DNA from: Catajapyx aquilonaris
Taxonomy: Eukaryota
Reading direction: 5' to 3'
Assembly (NCBI GenBank): GCA_000934665.2
Contig: JYFJ02001225.1
Span: forward strand, 1-64,000
Length of the DNA: 64,000 nucleotides
The notes under the pieces were generated by a model, which was not told where the DNA came from, did not search any database, and was given only the letters and a program-made list of their open reading frames with translations. Positions 34,099 to 49,000 of this stretch are shown here, in pieces. Made by a program: the position numbers and the translations under genes. Each line of letters opens with the position of its first letter. The first letter of the stretch is position 1.

Positions 34099-37000
34099 TC
34101 ACAGGCCGCCGTTACTTGGAGGTCCAATGGGACCAAGGTCCGTGTTGTTCTTTAGGAAATATTTCTCAAGTTTGGCGATGATGTGCTTTCCGTAGGTGTA
34201 CTTGCGCAGGGAGTTGAGATGCGGACGGATCTTGTGCATGAGGACCTTGCGCTGGGAGGGCTCCGACACGTCAATCATCTTCTGGACCACATAGTTCGCG
34301 TACTGGTCCTTCATCATTATATGTAAGGCACTGTTTGGATTGCTGGAATGGAGGTTAAAATGAGTTAGGACATTACAAAGGGGACGCTCAGTTTCTGAAG
34401 TGCACGATGAAGAGCGATCCCAGTACATCCAAATATGCCACTCACTTGTCATTGTAACTGCAAATCTCATCGATGAGCATGGCCTTCTCTGGCCTGGTGG
34501 CGTAGGTGACACACTTCTCCACCACGTTGGATGCGAATTTGTGCTGAGACAGCTGCAAGACTTTTCCTCTCACCACTGACACAATCTTCGACTTATCATC
34601 AGCCTTTCCATGCTCTGCGAAACACACAAAAGTAATCTTATCCAAAACATACCACCATTTCTGGATATGAATTGTTATTGTCTGATCAGCACTGCAAATA
34701 CTAAGTGAATTCCACCTGCTCAAAGTACTGCGAATCAGAGCTAAGGTATTGAGGTATTGAACTGTCGGTACAATATAATTTTCTCCAGACAAACCAGTGT
34801 TAAATTCCAATTAAAAACAGAAGCCGCAAAACTCACCCAAGACATGCTGTATGACGTAATTCCCATACTGGTCCTGTATTAGCTGCTCAGTGTGCCCATG
34901 TAGTTCGTCTAAAATGGGTGTGGTCTGCTCTGGTGTGCAGTGCTCCAAGATGCGTTGGATCACACGGCATCCATATGGATGTGTTGACAGGGCAAATACC
35001 TGCAGGAAGCGAAGAAGTCAAAATCCGTATCCAAAAACCGTGCAGTCAAATAAGTAAATTGGTAGCTCTGGTCCTCCAGACACTCATCGTATCACAGAAT
35101 TTCAATACGTAAGCAAACACTAACCTGTCCCTGGAAGGCATTGATGATAAACTGCAATGCATGTGGGTCGACACACTCGATGCACTTCTGCACAACATGG
35201 TTCCCATTCTGGTCTTTGACGCACTTCAGAACGTGCCCGTCCAGCTCCCTCACAATCTCCTTCTGCTGCTCTGGTGGAATCGACTCCAGTGCTTTCTGGA
35301 TCACCCGGCAACCATACATCTGCAGAGCCAGAGGGAGGACATGGCCGCGAACCTGGCAATGGAAGTAAATGATGCATCTAGGTGAGGTTCAAACACAGAG
35401 TGGTTGGGTTAACCAACCAAACAGGACCTTCAATCAAAATTCTCATTTAAAATCTTATCACTGATGCAGTTTGAATGTACTTTCATCCCTCGACTTACAT
35501 AAAAATTGTGGTGGTGATTAGGATCAGATGCGATATTTCTCAAAACACAACATGTTCAGTGACTTAGGTCCGTACGATCATCACGTCCTTCCCCACCACT
35601 CTTAAACATGAATTCAATAATATGCAGTAGTAGCTACACAACTTTTTTTTTTTTTGCGCACACATCAAAACTTCCTACTTTCTGTGCGAGAGTGGCCTTC
35701 TGCTCTGGTGTTCCAAACTCGAAGAACTTCTGGATGACATAGTTTCCGAAGACATCAGTCATGAGGCTGTAAGTGGCCTGCAGAATTTCACTGAACACCA
35801 TCTGCTTCTCTGCAGGTGTGGCCCTCTCAAGCTTCTGCTGGATGAACCTGGATCCATGCTGGTCTTGGCTGAACTCTACGATGTGATTGGCAAGGTCCCG
35901 AAGCTGAAGGTTGGGGAAGCGGTTGTTCCTGAAGTCCTCCAACAGCCGGCTACGCCCAATTGGCTTATCCAAGGAGGAAGACGCCGCACTGTTACGTGAC
36001 GTGAACTTTGTGAAGAGTGATGCCGCAGTTGCAACCCCACTGTTGGCACCACCATTCCCACCACCAAGACCCACGCCAAGGCCAGCACCAGATCCAAACA
36101 CGCCATTTGTTGGAATCCCTCCGTTTCGGAACTTGGCTTCGGCACCTGGGGCTGCACTCAGCATGCGGCTTCCTGTTAAAATGCAAAGGTCACATTATAA
36201 TCTTACGCTTCAATAAAACAGCCTGTTATCGTAAATAAGTGGCAATACCATTTGAAATATTTCAATTGGATTTGTCAGTGAAAGCCAATAGATATTGTAA
36301 TGACAGAAATTAGCGGCGGTTAGGATCAGATGCGAATGTCTCAAACACAACTTGTTCAGTGACTTAGGTCCGTACGATCATCACGTCCTTCCCCACCACT
36401 CTTAACAGTGAATGTGAATAATACATATTAGTAGTCGTTTCAACTTCTGTTTCAGTTATGTCAAAAAACAAGTTTCATCTTCATGATGCTGTGGCCTGAC
36501 ATACCTGACATCAAAGCGCCCAATTGCAAGTTGGAAGTGCTGCTGGACAGACTAGGAGGGGGTGTCAGAGACCCAGACCCAAGTCCGAGAGGCCCTGGAG
36601 ATGCCGTGACTGTCCCAAGGGCACCGTAATTCTGGGTCCATTTCCCCCTGGCGTAGTCCAGAGATGGAGAGTAGGAGGCAGTGCGATCAAAAGAGTCGCG
36701 CCGTCCAGAGTTGCCGTTGCCCAGCCCAAGTCCTGACCCCAAGGAGCCCAGGGCTGGAGAGCCGATGGTGCCTAGAGAGTTATTTCCATAGCCAAGAGAG
36801 CTGTTCTGCTGGATGTTCAGTGAGCCAAAGCCTCCACTCAGGCTGGACGACTGGAGGCTCCCTGGAATCCATTAATTCAATAATGGGTCACACATCAAGA
36901 GGGAACTGATAACTTCAAAAAAAAAAAAGGGTTGCATCTCACATGCTTTTTATCGAAAATTACTCCTTTTAAACCTTGCAAGGTGCGGTATATGCAAGTA

Positions 37001-40000
37001 GTGACACCCAACACCAAAATTGAAATTAATGTACACTGATAAAAAGTTCACATTAACCCACAACCAAGCTAATAATTTTCTGACCGGCACTTCAGGTGGA
37101 TATGAAGCGAAATTTCAATGCCTATGAATTTCCACAAAAGTTTCATAACTTCAACTATAAAAATCCTGCCTACACCAAAATCCGCAGATGCTCAAGTCCT
37201 TTATATTGATTAGTATGGCTGTTCACGTACCCCATGTACTCGACACCATCCGACGTTACTTATATTACATAATACCATTGAAGTGCTCAGCGCACAGCAA
37301 ATTCACTTTCCATAACTTTCTCGAATGGCATTATTTTTCCATTATCATTTTTGGGGATTTTCTTGCAGCTTGAGCAGCTTGAACACCTTAGCGGATTTTT
37401 AAACCCCCACAGACAGAATTTTACGACTTCATTATTTTCCATCTTTACACATGAAGATACGCAGTTACATGAAGGATGAGATGCGAAATTCTCTAACACA
37501 ATCTGTTCAGTGGTCCATACATCATCACTTCCTTCTACGGTTCAACATATCCTGCCACACATACACCCCAACAATCAACTGTACTATCACCAGCACACAT
37601 CACCCTTGCTAACTATGTACATTAATTGACCCTAATTTAAAGCGAAATGTGAAAAATTTGGATGGGACGTACGTAACTCACCTCCCAAGGCCCCACCACT
37701 TGAGGAGGAGGAAGAGTAGATGGAAGCAGGCTGGTTACCGTTGTACAGAGAGGCTGGAGGAGTCTGAATTTGCTGTGGTTGGTTGCTTAGCAAGCGCAGG
37801 TTGCTCCCTTTTTGAGTGGGATTTAGGATTTTCGGTTGTTTTTTTTTTGGCATAGGTCGGAGGAGGGACAGGGGTTTTTTTTGTACAAAGGTTAAAAGAA
37901 GCCAATTTGGTGAGGAGGAAAAGCAGACATACCTCGTTTTAGATCTCTTGCAATCAACACTCATGCACAACAATTCCCTTTGCTATCTAAATAACTAGTG
38001 CACAAACATTCAATGCTCATTACCAACTATCACCCTTAATTCTTTGTACAAAAATGCACCAACATTACGAAATATTTATGGTACTTTGTGAATTTAAAGG
38101 CACACATGTTATCCTGGACATCTCACGTGACCAAAATGAAAGAATTTATGGAGCACCGAGAGTGCCAGTGTTTCTAAGAGTTTACAGTACACCAGAGTAC
38201 TACGGGTGATTGGATAGTGTTGTCTAGATTGTAATTATTTGCTTGACATTAATCTAAAATCAATACAATAGACTTTGGTTTAACGCAGAGTAATCATCAT
38301 TGCCAAAAAAAAAATACCCTCTTGGTATCACATGAACACCACAAACTATGTACCACAACAGGATCACAGGACTGTACAAACGATCCGAAACTGATCTGTA
38401 CACTGTACAAAGGAAATGTTCTTCCTGGTGTCTCACCTGGATTTCCTGTGTTGACCAGGACTGGTGCAGGTGACACCAACCTGACTGGAGTCCCGTTGCC
38501 AATGCCTCTCATGTTTCCCATCACCAGGGAGCCGTTCTGGTCATAGTAGGCAGGTATCACCTGATACTGTCCTTGCACCTGCTGTGGGAATAAAGAAATA
38601 ACTTTACAACCATGAACTTCAATTCCGTAAATAAAAGGATCCGTAAATATGCTTTTAACAACACTTGACATCTGCTATGCAATTTTCCCATTTTGACGTT
38701 TTCTGTGCCAAGGAACATTTCCTTAGACTAACACTGACCTCCTGACTTTGGTATGAAATGCTTTTCCCAAACAGGGTCTTCGATCAAATAGATATATTTT
38801 TTTTAAATCATAAGACTCTGCTTCTACTGTTGTGCAGTTTGAATGCACTTTCATCCCTCTACTAAACCAGTGGCGATTAGGATCAGATGCGAAATTTCTC
38901 AAAACACAACATGTTCAGTGACTTAGGTCCGTACGATCATCACTTCCTTCCTCACCACTCTTTGACAGGGTATGTGATAAAAGAATTCGTGCATATTACC
39001 AAACTGTAATGTAAAAAAAAACTAAAGCTGCATCATCATCATCATGACTGACATGACACACATGCCATATGAACTATCCTTTTTTTTTACCTAGCCCCTC
39101 CCAAAAATTCCTCAGTTTCAGTTGTGCCACAGTTATCATTTTCAGCTTTAGCATGGTCTGCATGCCCATACAAATGGCCAACATAAGATGACATTTAGTC
39201 CACTGGCTCTAAGAATAGGCATCTGGGCAGACACCAAACTGACATTTGCCATTATGACACCAAAAGATCAAGTGTCTTTTCATTCGCCTGACAGTGCTGG
39301 GAAAAACTGTACTGTACTTCCGAAAGCATAGCGAGTGGAAGTGTTCACGCAACTGACCTGTGCAAGATTCCCTCCATTTGTGGCAATATCTGGTGCAGAA
39401 GACGGTGTAAGTGGCCGCCTCTGCTGTGCTGCCGCGGCTGCTGCCGCAGCATTTTGTTGGAGGACATTGGCTGGGTATACACCCCAAGGGGCTGCCACTC
39501 CATAGTACTGAGGAAGGACCGTAGGGCCTGGAAAAGCGAACACAACTCTTCAGAACATTGCAGTTAAGATACTGAGAAATACCGACAGGCTGAAACATTG
39601 CAACAGTACGCACATATTAGCGGTAAATTAGTGGGGACATTCATACAAGTTTCAGAAGCACAAAAAGTAGGCATGCCCAATCTACAAAATGTAATTTCCA
39701 TATAATTATCTGGCTGCATGATAGCAATGTGGCTTACTTGTTAGTCACAACATGACAGACCCCACGTAAGCCTTGGGTTTACTTCATTTTAACTGTAATG
39801 ACAATACTTCCAATATCACGACGACAACTTCGGAGTAGTTTTCCAGAACACTTGTCACGTAAGTTTCTCTCGCTTATCAGCTGCAGTTAGCAGAACATTG
39901 TACCATGACCTATCCCTCTTGCCATGGTCAAGGGACCAAAACTAGACCCTCCACCCAAATCACTTGCCCCTAACCTGGCAGCTACGCCCCAAACTTTATG

Positions 40001-46000: not shown

Positions 46001-49000
46001 ACCACGTGACCCAGTTCACTAAGAAAAGTCGCATTCAGAGTCGCGCTTTAGGCCTAGTGCGGACTTAGTGCGATCCTGTTAAAGCGGTGCACTATTTAAA
46101 AGCCCATTTATCGCCCAGACGGTGTCCGAAAACCTGACTGTGAAATCGTGGCAACACCGCGTCTCGCTAGTGCAGTGTTCGTACCTAGTGCACCGCTCTA
46201 AGCAGGCAGTGAGGCGACTCTGAATGGGAGCAACTAGTGTGGCGCTAATGCGGACCTAGCGTCGCACTAGTTAGTGTGGACTTTTGCGCTGCATTAGCGA
46301 ACGACTCTGAATACGGCCCATATTCTTTCACTAAACTAAATGTAGCAGACTTTCCCCGTACTGCCAATATTAATTTCTAGTGTAAATTAGGCACTGGGGG
46401 TGATAATCGTCTGTAGCCATTGCTGTAAGCTCTCTCTCCAGCTGCAACCCCAGACTTGGGACGCACTCACGCATGCACAAGTAGGCAAGGTACATGATTA
46501 AATTTTGTTACATTTCAGCTAGCTGTGCCATTGTCATTAGTAAGCAAGTTGTGTGGGTCCACTTTTAAAAATCGGTAGCGGTGTGCACTTTGGCAATAAT
46601 GCATCCACACTTAAGAATTCTACCCATCAGTGGACCCCAACCGTGTCACTGGTCACTAACCACATCTTTGACTTCCTTGGCCAGCAACGGCCCGTAACTC
46701 TGGTGTATGCTGATGAACTTTTTCTCCAGCAGCTTCATGTCCCCCACGCACATTCGCGCGCGCCACACTCCACGACCCCACCACACTCCCGAAAAAAATA
46801 TCCAAAGTCACGTGGTCCTCCCACACATGTGTCAACCTCCTCATGTGCCACGCGCAAAGTTCTTAGTCCTCTAGCACAGCGTGGGAGTAAGCACCTTTCC
46901 ATCCACGGGCCCAAAGCCGACTGCCGGGATTGGACCGCACTGCGCTAAAACCCCTTGCACCGGTTCCTTCACTTGGGAGGAGGGTTTTTTTTTTTTGGAG
47001 GGGGGAAAGAGGGGTGGTGGTTCAGGAGGGGGAGGGAACACCACCACCACGTTCTAGGTGGGTGGATTGAACCTAGAGCTGCTTGCAAGAGCCGGAACAG
47101 GAAGGAAGGGGGTTGTGGAGGGGAACTCAGTGGAGGGGGGATTTGCCCAGCAACCCTCCCACCCCAGTACAAAACAGCCAATCCCTCAACTTCCATGTAT
47201 GACCCCTTCCTTCTAACCTACATAAAAGGCATTTTTAGGGGAGGTGGATGCAGACGATGGAAAGTCTTGAAAAAAAGAAAAAAAAGGGGGGGCAGCAGTG
47301 GGGGTGGGTTTCGGTTTTATTGCCGGGAAGGAGGGGGGAGAGAAGGACTAATCGTGGGAATATAATTCGCGTAATTTTGGTCGGCATGCACAAAACACGA
47401 AAACGACCGCAGATTGGGGGGGCCCTTTCCCAAGAACCGCGATGTATGCAAGCCGGTATGCACGGCTCGTAGTTTAGAAAAAGAAAAAAAAACGCGGGTG
47501 GTACAAATCGTGTACAACTAGCGCAATGCCACGCCAAAAAAAAATGGTGCAGCAACGTTCTGCAACTCGTCTCAAAAACGACCTGCCATTCGCCAAATGC
47601 AGTAAAAATCTGCTCTGGTCCGTCTCTCTCTCTCAAATCGTATAATCCGTTGGCACGTCCCACCACGTGTCTGTAATGTCCCCCAGAGACCCACAAAGTC
47701 GAGGAAGATGACCCCTTGGGTGAGGGTAACGGTACCTGAGCTGTAACCCCCCCTCCATATCTAACGGTATCGGGGCAATCCCAGCCGGCCATTGCCCACC
47801 CCCACCCAGTGTTAACCTGCCCATCAGCCCACTACAGGAACGCACAAAAAAAAACCATTACATGCTGGGTGTGCGTGTGCTTCATATACCATTTGGATGT
47901 ACAGGGAACCGGGCGAATAACTGGGCAGGGTTGGGTGCCCCGCTCTTCATTTCAAATGGTGTGTGTTTGGTTTGTGTGTTCCGGACACTTCATAACTGAT
48001 ATTAAGGAGGTTGGCCCAGCATTGCCTTTCAACCTCCAAGGATAAGGAAGGAAGGAAGCGGCTGTGGCCTATTATACGGAAGCAACCCCGGAATTATCCT
48101 AGAAAGACCGTGGAAAACCACAGAAAACCACGGTCAAGGTTGCCGGCCCCGGGATTCGAACCTAGGACCTCCCGATTAGCAGTCGGACGCCCTATCCACT
48201 ATGCCAACCTGCTTCAGTGTGTGTGTTCCAGCCAGTGGAAGATATTAGAGTGAAAATTGAATGGCCCGACAGCACAAGGGTCTGAAATCCAGGGTAATAA
48301 ATTTGGAATGAAAAGTAAACCAGTTCATGCAATTGGCATCATTAAATTACAAACCAATTGTCACGGTAGCTCTTTCGTGTGTGAGGCTTCATCGCTGGTG
48401 GGATGTCCGCTACTTTTCTACGCCGACAGTACCCATGGTACCGTGAAGTATCGCCAAATGATCTAGACTTCCAGAGTCGTCTCCTGGTGGTGACCACCGA
48501 TCGACCCGGACGGAAGTTGTCATGACGACTGTTTTTCTAATCAGTGCGAAAAGAAACTAGCGTCGGCACGTGATGGGCTTTAAACGATTAATGTCCATCA
48601 ATGTGTGGCGATTTTCATCTCGGACCTATCAATTTCACTTAACGCCAAACCGACGACACGGTTGCGAGTTCAATGGTGCGTGTGCGCTTCCCTCCTCCAC
48701 ACACACTTCATATCTTCTTAAATGCGTACTGAATTTCACTTCCCAACCAGGCTGTTACTGACTTCTGGGGGGGGGGGGGGGGGNNNNNNNNGGGGGGGGG
48801 GGCAAAGTATCGGTACCTGGTATTATATGATCGTTGTTGCATATCCGCCAGCGTTTTCACCGCGTGCTCGGTCACACGGCACAGTTTTGATTGGTCCAAA
48901 TGTTAGCCTCCAATTGAAAAAAATGTACAGGGATAAGGATGGATTTAAGGAATTCCTACTGATACATTTTGATAGAAAATACCACAACGAAAACGCCCAA

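Follow-up and report, generated by a model that had tools for sequence, protein, structure and literature searches.

The Pumilio locus and its repeated intronic unit

The stretch of DNA analysed here (the window) comprises positions 1 to 64,000 of contig JYFJ02001225.1 from Catajapyx aquilonaris, and it carries a minus-strand Pumilio gene in which four introns contain copies of a unit of approximately 70 nt with the layout of a box C/D small nucleolar RNA (snoRNA). The host gene, which encodes a classical Pumilio protein, was recognised from three exon translations that match the Pfam PUF repeat, with E-values between 4e-26 and 4e-08. The strongest of these matches (4e-26) came from the exon at 35679-36172 on the minus strand, which holds the start of the PUF repeat domain. 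The same exon matched structures of human Pumilio homolog 1 and Drosophila Pumilio at E-values of 1e-71 to 1e-65, including 4.7e-71 for the human Pumilio homolog 1 chain 5ykh_A. An earlier reading, made from the letters of this DNA without database searches (the sequence-only reading), had named the host as pumilio, and both the PUF repeats and the match at 1e-71 to human Pumilio homolog 1 agree with it.

The splice sites were predicted from the sequence, using GT-AG motifs together with reading-frame continuity (matching phases) across each junction, which gave five consecutive introns, all on the minus strand. Intron A (38582-39357, 776 nt) contains an intact unit at 38879-38948 (70 nt), separated from the 5' splice site by 409 nt and from the 3' splice site by 297 nt. 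Intron B (37808-38436, 629 nt) has the GT-AG borders and no unit. Intron C (36862-37681, 820 nt) contains a degenerate unit at 37473-37533 (61 nt). The two remaining introns are shorter, and each of them carries an intact unit: intron D (36173-36504, 332 nt) at 36322-36389 (68 nt), with 115 nt to the 5' and 149 nt to the 3' splice site, and intron E (35353-35678, 326 nt) at 35520-35589 (70 nt), with 89 nt and 167 nt, respectively. Four of the five predicted introns are therefore occupied by a single unit each, and every unit is in the sense orientation relative to the host. This is what the sequence-only reading had proposed, a repeat of about 70 nt in four separate pumilio introns, one per intron and always sense; the ends of the units were corrected, to 70, 68, 61 and 70 nt in order of increasing coordinates.

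In the sense of the RNA, an intact unit starts with AGGA, followed by C or A, the C box GTGATGA, an 18-nt element and the D' box CTGA. After the D' box come a 15-nt hairpin region, the C' box (TGAGAA or TGAGAC), 8-9 nt, the D box CTGA and finally TCCT. In the intron E unit, the AGGA/TCCT terminal stem is formed by 35586-35589 and 35520-35523, the C box lies at 35578-35584, the putative D' guide at 35560-35577, the D' box at 35556-35559 and the D box at 35524-35527. With an 8-bp external stem, whose 5' strand is at 35593-35600 and whose 3' strand is at 35510-35517, this unit extends over 35510-35600. The corresponding C box, D' guide, D' box and D box are found at 36378-36384, 36360-36377, 36356-36359 and 36326-36329 in intron D, and at 38937-38943, 38919-38936, 38915-38918 and 38883-38886 in intron A.

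The C box has the GTGATGA form of the RUGAUGA class in all four units, the CTGA of the D' box is unchanged in all four, and the D box is CTGA in three of the four. The C' box is degenerate, which is common. The exception at the D box is the intron C unit, where the C box and the D' box are kept, the D' element is shorter by 7 nt, the D box position reads CTCA and the external stem is missing. Given the loss of 7 guide nucleotides and the CTCA in place of a D box, this unit is a decayed copy. The canonical C, D' and D boxes and AGGA/TCCT stem that the sequence-only reading had ascribed to the family are thus found together in three units, the fourth (37473-37533) having CTCA at the D box, and the count of three intact copies holds.

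The recurrence of the unit is not expected by chance. The 28-mer running from the C box through the D' box is present in three exact copies (0 mismatches), with 0 expected from 100 shuffles. An nhmmer profile built from the four units found no others across the 64 kb: it recovered the four themselves on the minus strand, at E-values of 1e-32 to 2e-19; three further weak matches (1-9 bits, E 0.04-7.7) were treated as noise. A crude, target-free scan for box C/D units was also run on both strands (RTGATGA, then CTGA 40-130 nt further on, with 4 bp or more in the terminal stem). It returned four spans, which were the three intact units and a spurious one that reuses the D' box of the intron A unit; in 30 shuffled windows the mean was 0.57 spans and no window had more than 2.

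A cmscan-type search of Rfam, the check suggested by the sequence-only reading, gave no family at gathering score on the units, and the only match at that level in the window was a transfer RNA (tRNA) located elsewhere. Under permissive thresholds (3.7 kb searched), 12 matches were obtained, eight of which were box C/D families on the four units; the remaining four were three unrelated models and one weak C/D match at 37372-37450. When the 101-nt unit was searched, there were seven weak matches; all were to box C/D families, lay on the minus strand and covered the whole length of the model. The best match for the three intact units was SNORD52 (RF00276, clan CL00063), with 28.1, 22.9 and 21.2 bits and E-values of 0.003-0.33 depending on the search space, well under its gathering score of 45. 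The unit is therefore of generic C/D architecture and is not a member of any curated family.

The weak C/D match at 37372-37450 (minus strand) is to snoU61, with 16.5 bits and an E-value of 7.3. It lies just downstream of the decayed intron C unit and is most likely a chance match.

We consider it probable, on the features of the sequence, that the units are paralogous intron-encoded box C/D snoRNA genes, three of them intact and one decaying. Like the intron-encoded box C/D snoRNAs of animals, they are approximately 70 nt long and have a RUGAUGA C box, CUGA D' and D boxes and a 4-bp terminal stem, and they occur as one unit per intron in sense orientation, with a putative 18-nt antisense element directly upstream of D' and a hairpin between D' and the degenerate C' box. 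They differ from this general class in lying 149-297 nt from the 3' splice site, in having an 8-bp external stem and in that the searches described below assigned no target to them.

Conservation, folding and spread of the copies

Over the 91-column unit, from external stem to external stem, the copies in introns E and A are identical at 86 of 91 positions, and both comparisons with the intron D copy give 78 of 91. Identity falls to 22-58% in the flanks of the units. The variable columns among the three intact units are unevenly distributed: there are none in the D' element (0/18) or the D' box (0/4) and one in the C box region (1/8), compared with 9/27 between the D' box and the D box and 4/8 on the 3' side of the external stem. 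The difference between the D' element and the D side is significant by Fisher's test for these three related sequences (p=0.0053), in line with the observation of the sequence-only reading that the intact copies do not differ in the 18 nt before D' and that the D side is variable.

In the RNAalifold consensus of the three intact units, the terminal stem has 4 bp and the external stem 8 bp, and a 6-bp hairpin separates D' from C'. The AGGA/TCCT terminal stem is unchanged in all of the units and is extended by the external stem in the three intact ones. Where the external stem varies, pairing is preserved: two pairs alternate between U-A and U-G, and one takes the forms G-U, G-C and A-U. The outer stems, with the external stem among them, also appear when each of the three intact units is folded singly to its minimum energy.

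Introns E and A have a 3' flank in common, at 35465-35495 and 38833-38863 respectively, with 94% identity over 31 nt; in the alignment, this common flank runs approximately 100 nt past the unit. Such an additional flank argues for spread by segmental duplication of DNA and not by retroposition of the mature RNA, and no poly(A) tail was seen directly after the units. In the favoured explanation, the copies arose by duplication at the DNA level between introns of one gene.

Proposed maturation and search for a target

The steps described below are taken from established knowledge of box C/D small nucleolar ribonucleoproteins (snoRNPs) and are applied to the observed architecture, placement, orientation and conservation of the units. 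Each unit would be transcribed within the pumilio precursor messenger RNA (pre-mRNA). The C and D boxes would then be brought into contact by the external stem and the AGGA/UCCU terminal stem, forming a kink-turn that would recruit Snu13/15.5K, Nop56, Nop58 and fibrillarin. Once the intron has been spliced out and debranched, trimming by exonucleases would leave an RNA of about 70 nt. According to the box+5 rule, 2'-O-methylation of the U in 5'-UGAC[U]UAGGUCC...-3' would be directed by the 18 nt before D', as no other antisense element is conserved. The D-side element is short (8-9 nt after the degenerate C' box) and drifts between the copies, and is therefore probably not a guide.

A target for the D' element was sought in proxy ribosomal DNA (rDNA). 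For this, 48 contigs were pulled from prokaryote assemblies with the complement of a published large subunit (LSU) primer, and many of them proved to be eukaryotic rDNA contaminants. The set that was scanned consisted of 31 proxy eukaryotic loci with a second rDNA marker (67,907 nt), standing in for this species' own ribosomal RNA (rRNA). The scan was ungapped, allowed G-U pairs and required a Watson-Crick pair at position 5. Among these loci, the 12-nt site of SNORD52 is, by eye, a perfect complement of the consensus guide of the SNORD52 model, and a guide of that quality would therefore give a 12-bp run in the scan. The longest run of our D' element in the canonical register was 10 bp, and we conclude that the conserved core of eukaryotic rRNA, as covered by the proxies, offers no target. 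Either the target would be a lineage-specific stretch of this animal's rRNA or small nuclear RNA (snRNA), or the RNA would be a true orphan. The label 'orphan', as it rests on proxy eukaryotic rDNA only, is unproven.

As a side observation from this search, among contigs L015-L062 many that are filed as bacterial isolates or metagenome-assembled genomes carry eukaryotic rDNA markers (primer sites for the small subunit (SSU), the internal transcribed spacer (ITS) and the LSU), which indicates eukaryotic contamination of prokaryote assemblies.

Several candidate sites were rejected. A recurrent 10-bp run (1 G-U) to TGACTTGGGT, just upstream of the conserved LSU GGGTATAGGGG in five loci, was discarded: both loci with AGGTCCGTA have GGAACTGGGT at this place, and shuffled guides do equally well. 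Two longer runs fell in divergent SSU regions of loci L017 and L037, at positions that are not homologous. For the D-side element, copy 1 pairs with ATGCGATA of 5.8S rRNA (8 bp, several loci); this was rejected as the other copies differ there. A preliminary consideration of tRNA anticodon loops and snRNAs suggested no convincing target either. Outside the rDNA, the exact 18-mer had one match in metagenome contigs, within a 209-codon open reading frame of a GC-rich contig, and the target 15-mer had 13 scattered matches in viral contigs, all of which were taken as chance. A primer motif was found in a single viral contig, which carries a transfer-messenger RNA (tmRNA) and no rDNA. Neither 14-mer (guide or target) was present in the paper full texts searched, and none of the matches listed for pumilio-hosted intronic snoRNAs dealt with the subject by title or abstract.

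In the window itself, the best sense-strand match of the D' element is in a pumilio exon at 36574-36585 (minus strand), where 12 bp with 2 G-U pairs are formed in the box+5 register. This exon is the one just upstream of intron D. Shuffled guides normally reach 11-13 bp in 68 kb, so the match is at chance level.

A number of these results weigh against the interpretation of the units as snoRNA genes. None of the Rfam families reaches its gathering score, and no target was identified in the 31 proxy loci, where the 10-bp maximum occurs in five loci, 96 of 100 shuffled guides also reach at least 10 bp and 57 of 100 have at least as many such runs. The intact units are 149-297 nt upstream of the 3' splice site; according to Hirose and Steitz, the optimum in mammals is reportedly about 70-80 nt for units without an external stem. 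External stems are reported to relieve the dependence on this distance. The fold energies are close to those of shuffled sequences (z -1.0 to -1.2, with 27-35 of 200 shuffles folding equally well), which is usual for C/D snoRNAs and is by itself no evidence. All of the changes in the stems are transitions, which keep the pairing almost automatically, so that the preserved pairing lends weak support. The sequence-only reading had also seen signs of selection on the D' guide; the D' element is indeed better conserved than the D side, but with three related intact copies a short gene-conversion tract, and not selection, could lie behind the same contrast.

Alternative readings and relation to known snoRNAs

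The sequence-only reading had drawn a parallel with vertebrate PUM1, a host of multicopy C/D snoRNAs (SNORD103/SNORD85) with a different guide. A human locus list in PMC9152224 gives PUM1, SNORD85, SNORD103A and SNORD103B together, a table in PMC11550049 assigns all three snoRNAs to 18S Gm601, and a passage in bioRxiv 10.1101/477869 describes the mature SNORD103A and SNORD103B as identical. The units resemble SNORD103A, SNORD103B and SNORD85 in forming a multicopy box C/D family at a pumilio-family locus with functional parts identical among paralogues, where the host on our side is Pumilio itself and on the human side is indicated by the co-listing at one locus (PMC9152224).

It is possible in principle that the units descend from this vertebrate family, with pumilio as an ancient host whose resident has changed its guide, which would be compatible with the units being snoRNA genes. 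The shared host gene family, the co-listing, the multicopy human family with identical mature forms and the common assignment to Gm601 would suit such a history. Against it, the stretch equivalent to 18S Gm601 formed no continuous helix with either antisense region in any of the six SSU loci (6/6), giving only gapped duplexes of -6.7 to -12.3 kcal/mol, and no Rfam match named SNORD103 or SNORD85 was found up to an E-value of 10. In addition, snoRNAs are known to move between host genes. Unlike SNORD103/SNORD85, then, the units have a guide that does not fit the Gm601-equivalent site and no relationship detectable with Rfam. The parallel with PUM1 therefore concerns the host gene and the multicopy habit, and not the guide. 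We regard common descent as unlikely; in evolutionary terms, what ties the units to the snoRNAs of vertebrate PUM1 is only a resemblance. The parallel of host and the difference in guide stand, but kinship is not established.

Another reading, to which we give a similarly low probability, takes the unit for a short dispersed repeat, derived from a snoRNA or otherwise, that has no function of its own and has been caught four times in one gene. In its favour, one of the copies is visibly decaying, and the target search of proxy rDNA and contigs yielded none. However, the four copies all lie in introns of a single gene in sense orientation and none is found elsewhere in the 64 kb on either strand, the boxes, stems and D' element are preserved where the flanks have dropped to 22-58% identity, and the copies appear as duplicated segments with a common flank and without a poly(A) tail directly after the unit.

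A further, quite improbable scenario is the following: pumilio would have been a snoRNA host before the lineages of this animal and the vertebrates separated, the guide would have been swapped, and the present RNA would be a true orphan whose invariant 18-nt element acts on a non-ribosomal RNA, possibly on the pumilio transcript itself (36574-36585). If this were true, the gene of an RNA-binding protein would be coupled to an RNA from its own introns.

It is also very unlikely, in our judgement, that the RNA acts without methylating, by pairing that departs from the box+5 register; its partner could then be, for instance, LSU AGGUCCGUA, with the RNA as a folding chaperone, or the host pre-mRNA. 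The sequence-only reading had pointed to AGGUCCGUA as an LSU sequence outside the D'+5 register; of 27 eukaryotic LSU fragments, two (L054, L058) have it, at one LSU position, with variants in the others. Guide positions 7-15 are perfectly complementary to AGGTCCGTA at that position in the same two fragments, outside the box+5 register, and most of this 9-mer is kept in the decayed copy; on the side of the pre-mRNA, there is the 12-bp match (2 G-U) in canonical register in the pumilio exon at 36574-36585. On the other hand, by our own arithmetic an 18-nt guide would have a perfect 9-mer match in about 7 kb of rRNA approximately 0.27 times by chance, the LSU 9-mer is variable among eukaryotes, and the exon match does not exceed the 11-13 bp runs of shuffled guides in 68 kb.

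The relation to SNORD52, the best Rfam match, can be examined at the level of its target. The units are like SNORD52 in overall layout and in having a D' guide of similar length, of which 9 of 12 letters are identical to the model consensus. They are unlike it in scoring 21-28 bits against a gathering score of 45 and in having a guide that is incompatible with the conserved LSU site of SNORD52. This site is GACTCTAGTCTG or a near variant in all seven eukaryotic LSU loci that hold it (exact in 3). Complementarity to GACUCUAGUCUG was not found, as the unit guide needs GACTTAGGTCCG. The human host gene of SNORD52 differs from Pumilio. That the units are diverged members of the SNORD52 family, guiding LSU Um3925 (human numbering), is therefore extremely unlikely in spite of the top match of all three intact units and the 9 of 12 guide positions held in common, since every score is far under 45 and the guide has three central mismatches to the exact GACTCTAGTCTG, beside the position to be methylated.

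A set of paralogous box C/D snoRNA genes, as we favour here, is an ordinary kind of gene. If confirmed, it would enlarge the gene set of an animal genome by a so far unannotated box C/D snoRNA family and give a second pumilio gene, beside vertebrate PUM1, with several intronic copies of one snoRNA. It would also provide a data point on whether ties between snoRNAs and their hosts are ancient or repeatedly acquired, and on the turnover of guides. A conserved guide without an rRNA target would join the orphan snoRNAs, whose function is debated.

Two other features of the window were noted. A palindromic hairpin at 50381-50444 matches the mir-153 model on both strands with 32.6-32.8 bits, compared with a cut-off of 54, and also weakly matches mir-232 and a bacterial small RNA model; this is likely to be an inverted repeat rather than a known microRNA. 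At 48141-48212 on the minus strand, ARAGORN predicts a tRNA-Ser (GCT) of 72 nt, which scores 33 bits in Rfam against a cut-off of 29. A nuclear tRNA-Ser normally has a long variable arm, for which this sequence is short, and it may therefore be a pseudogene or a tRNA-derived element.

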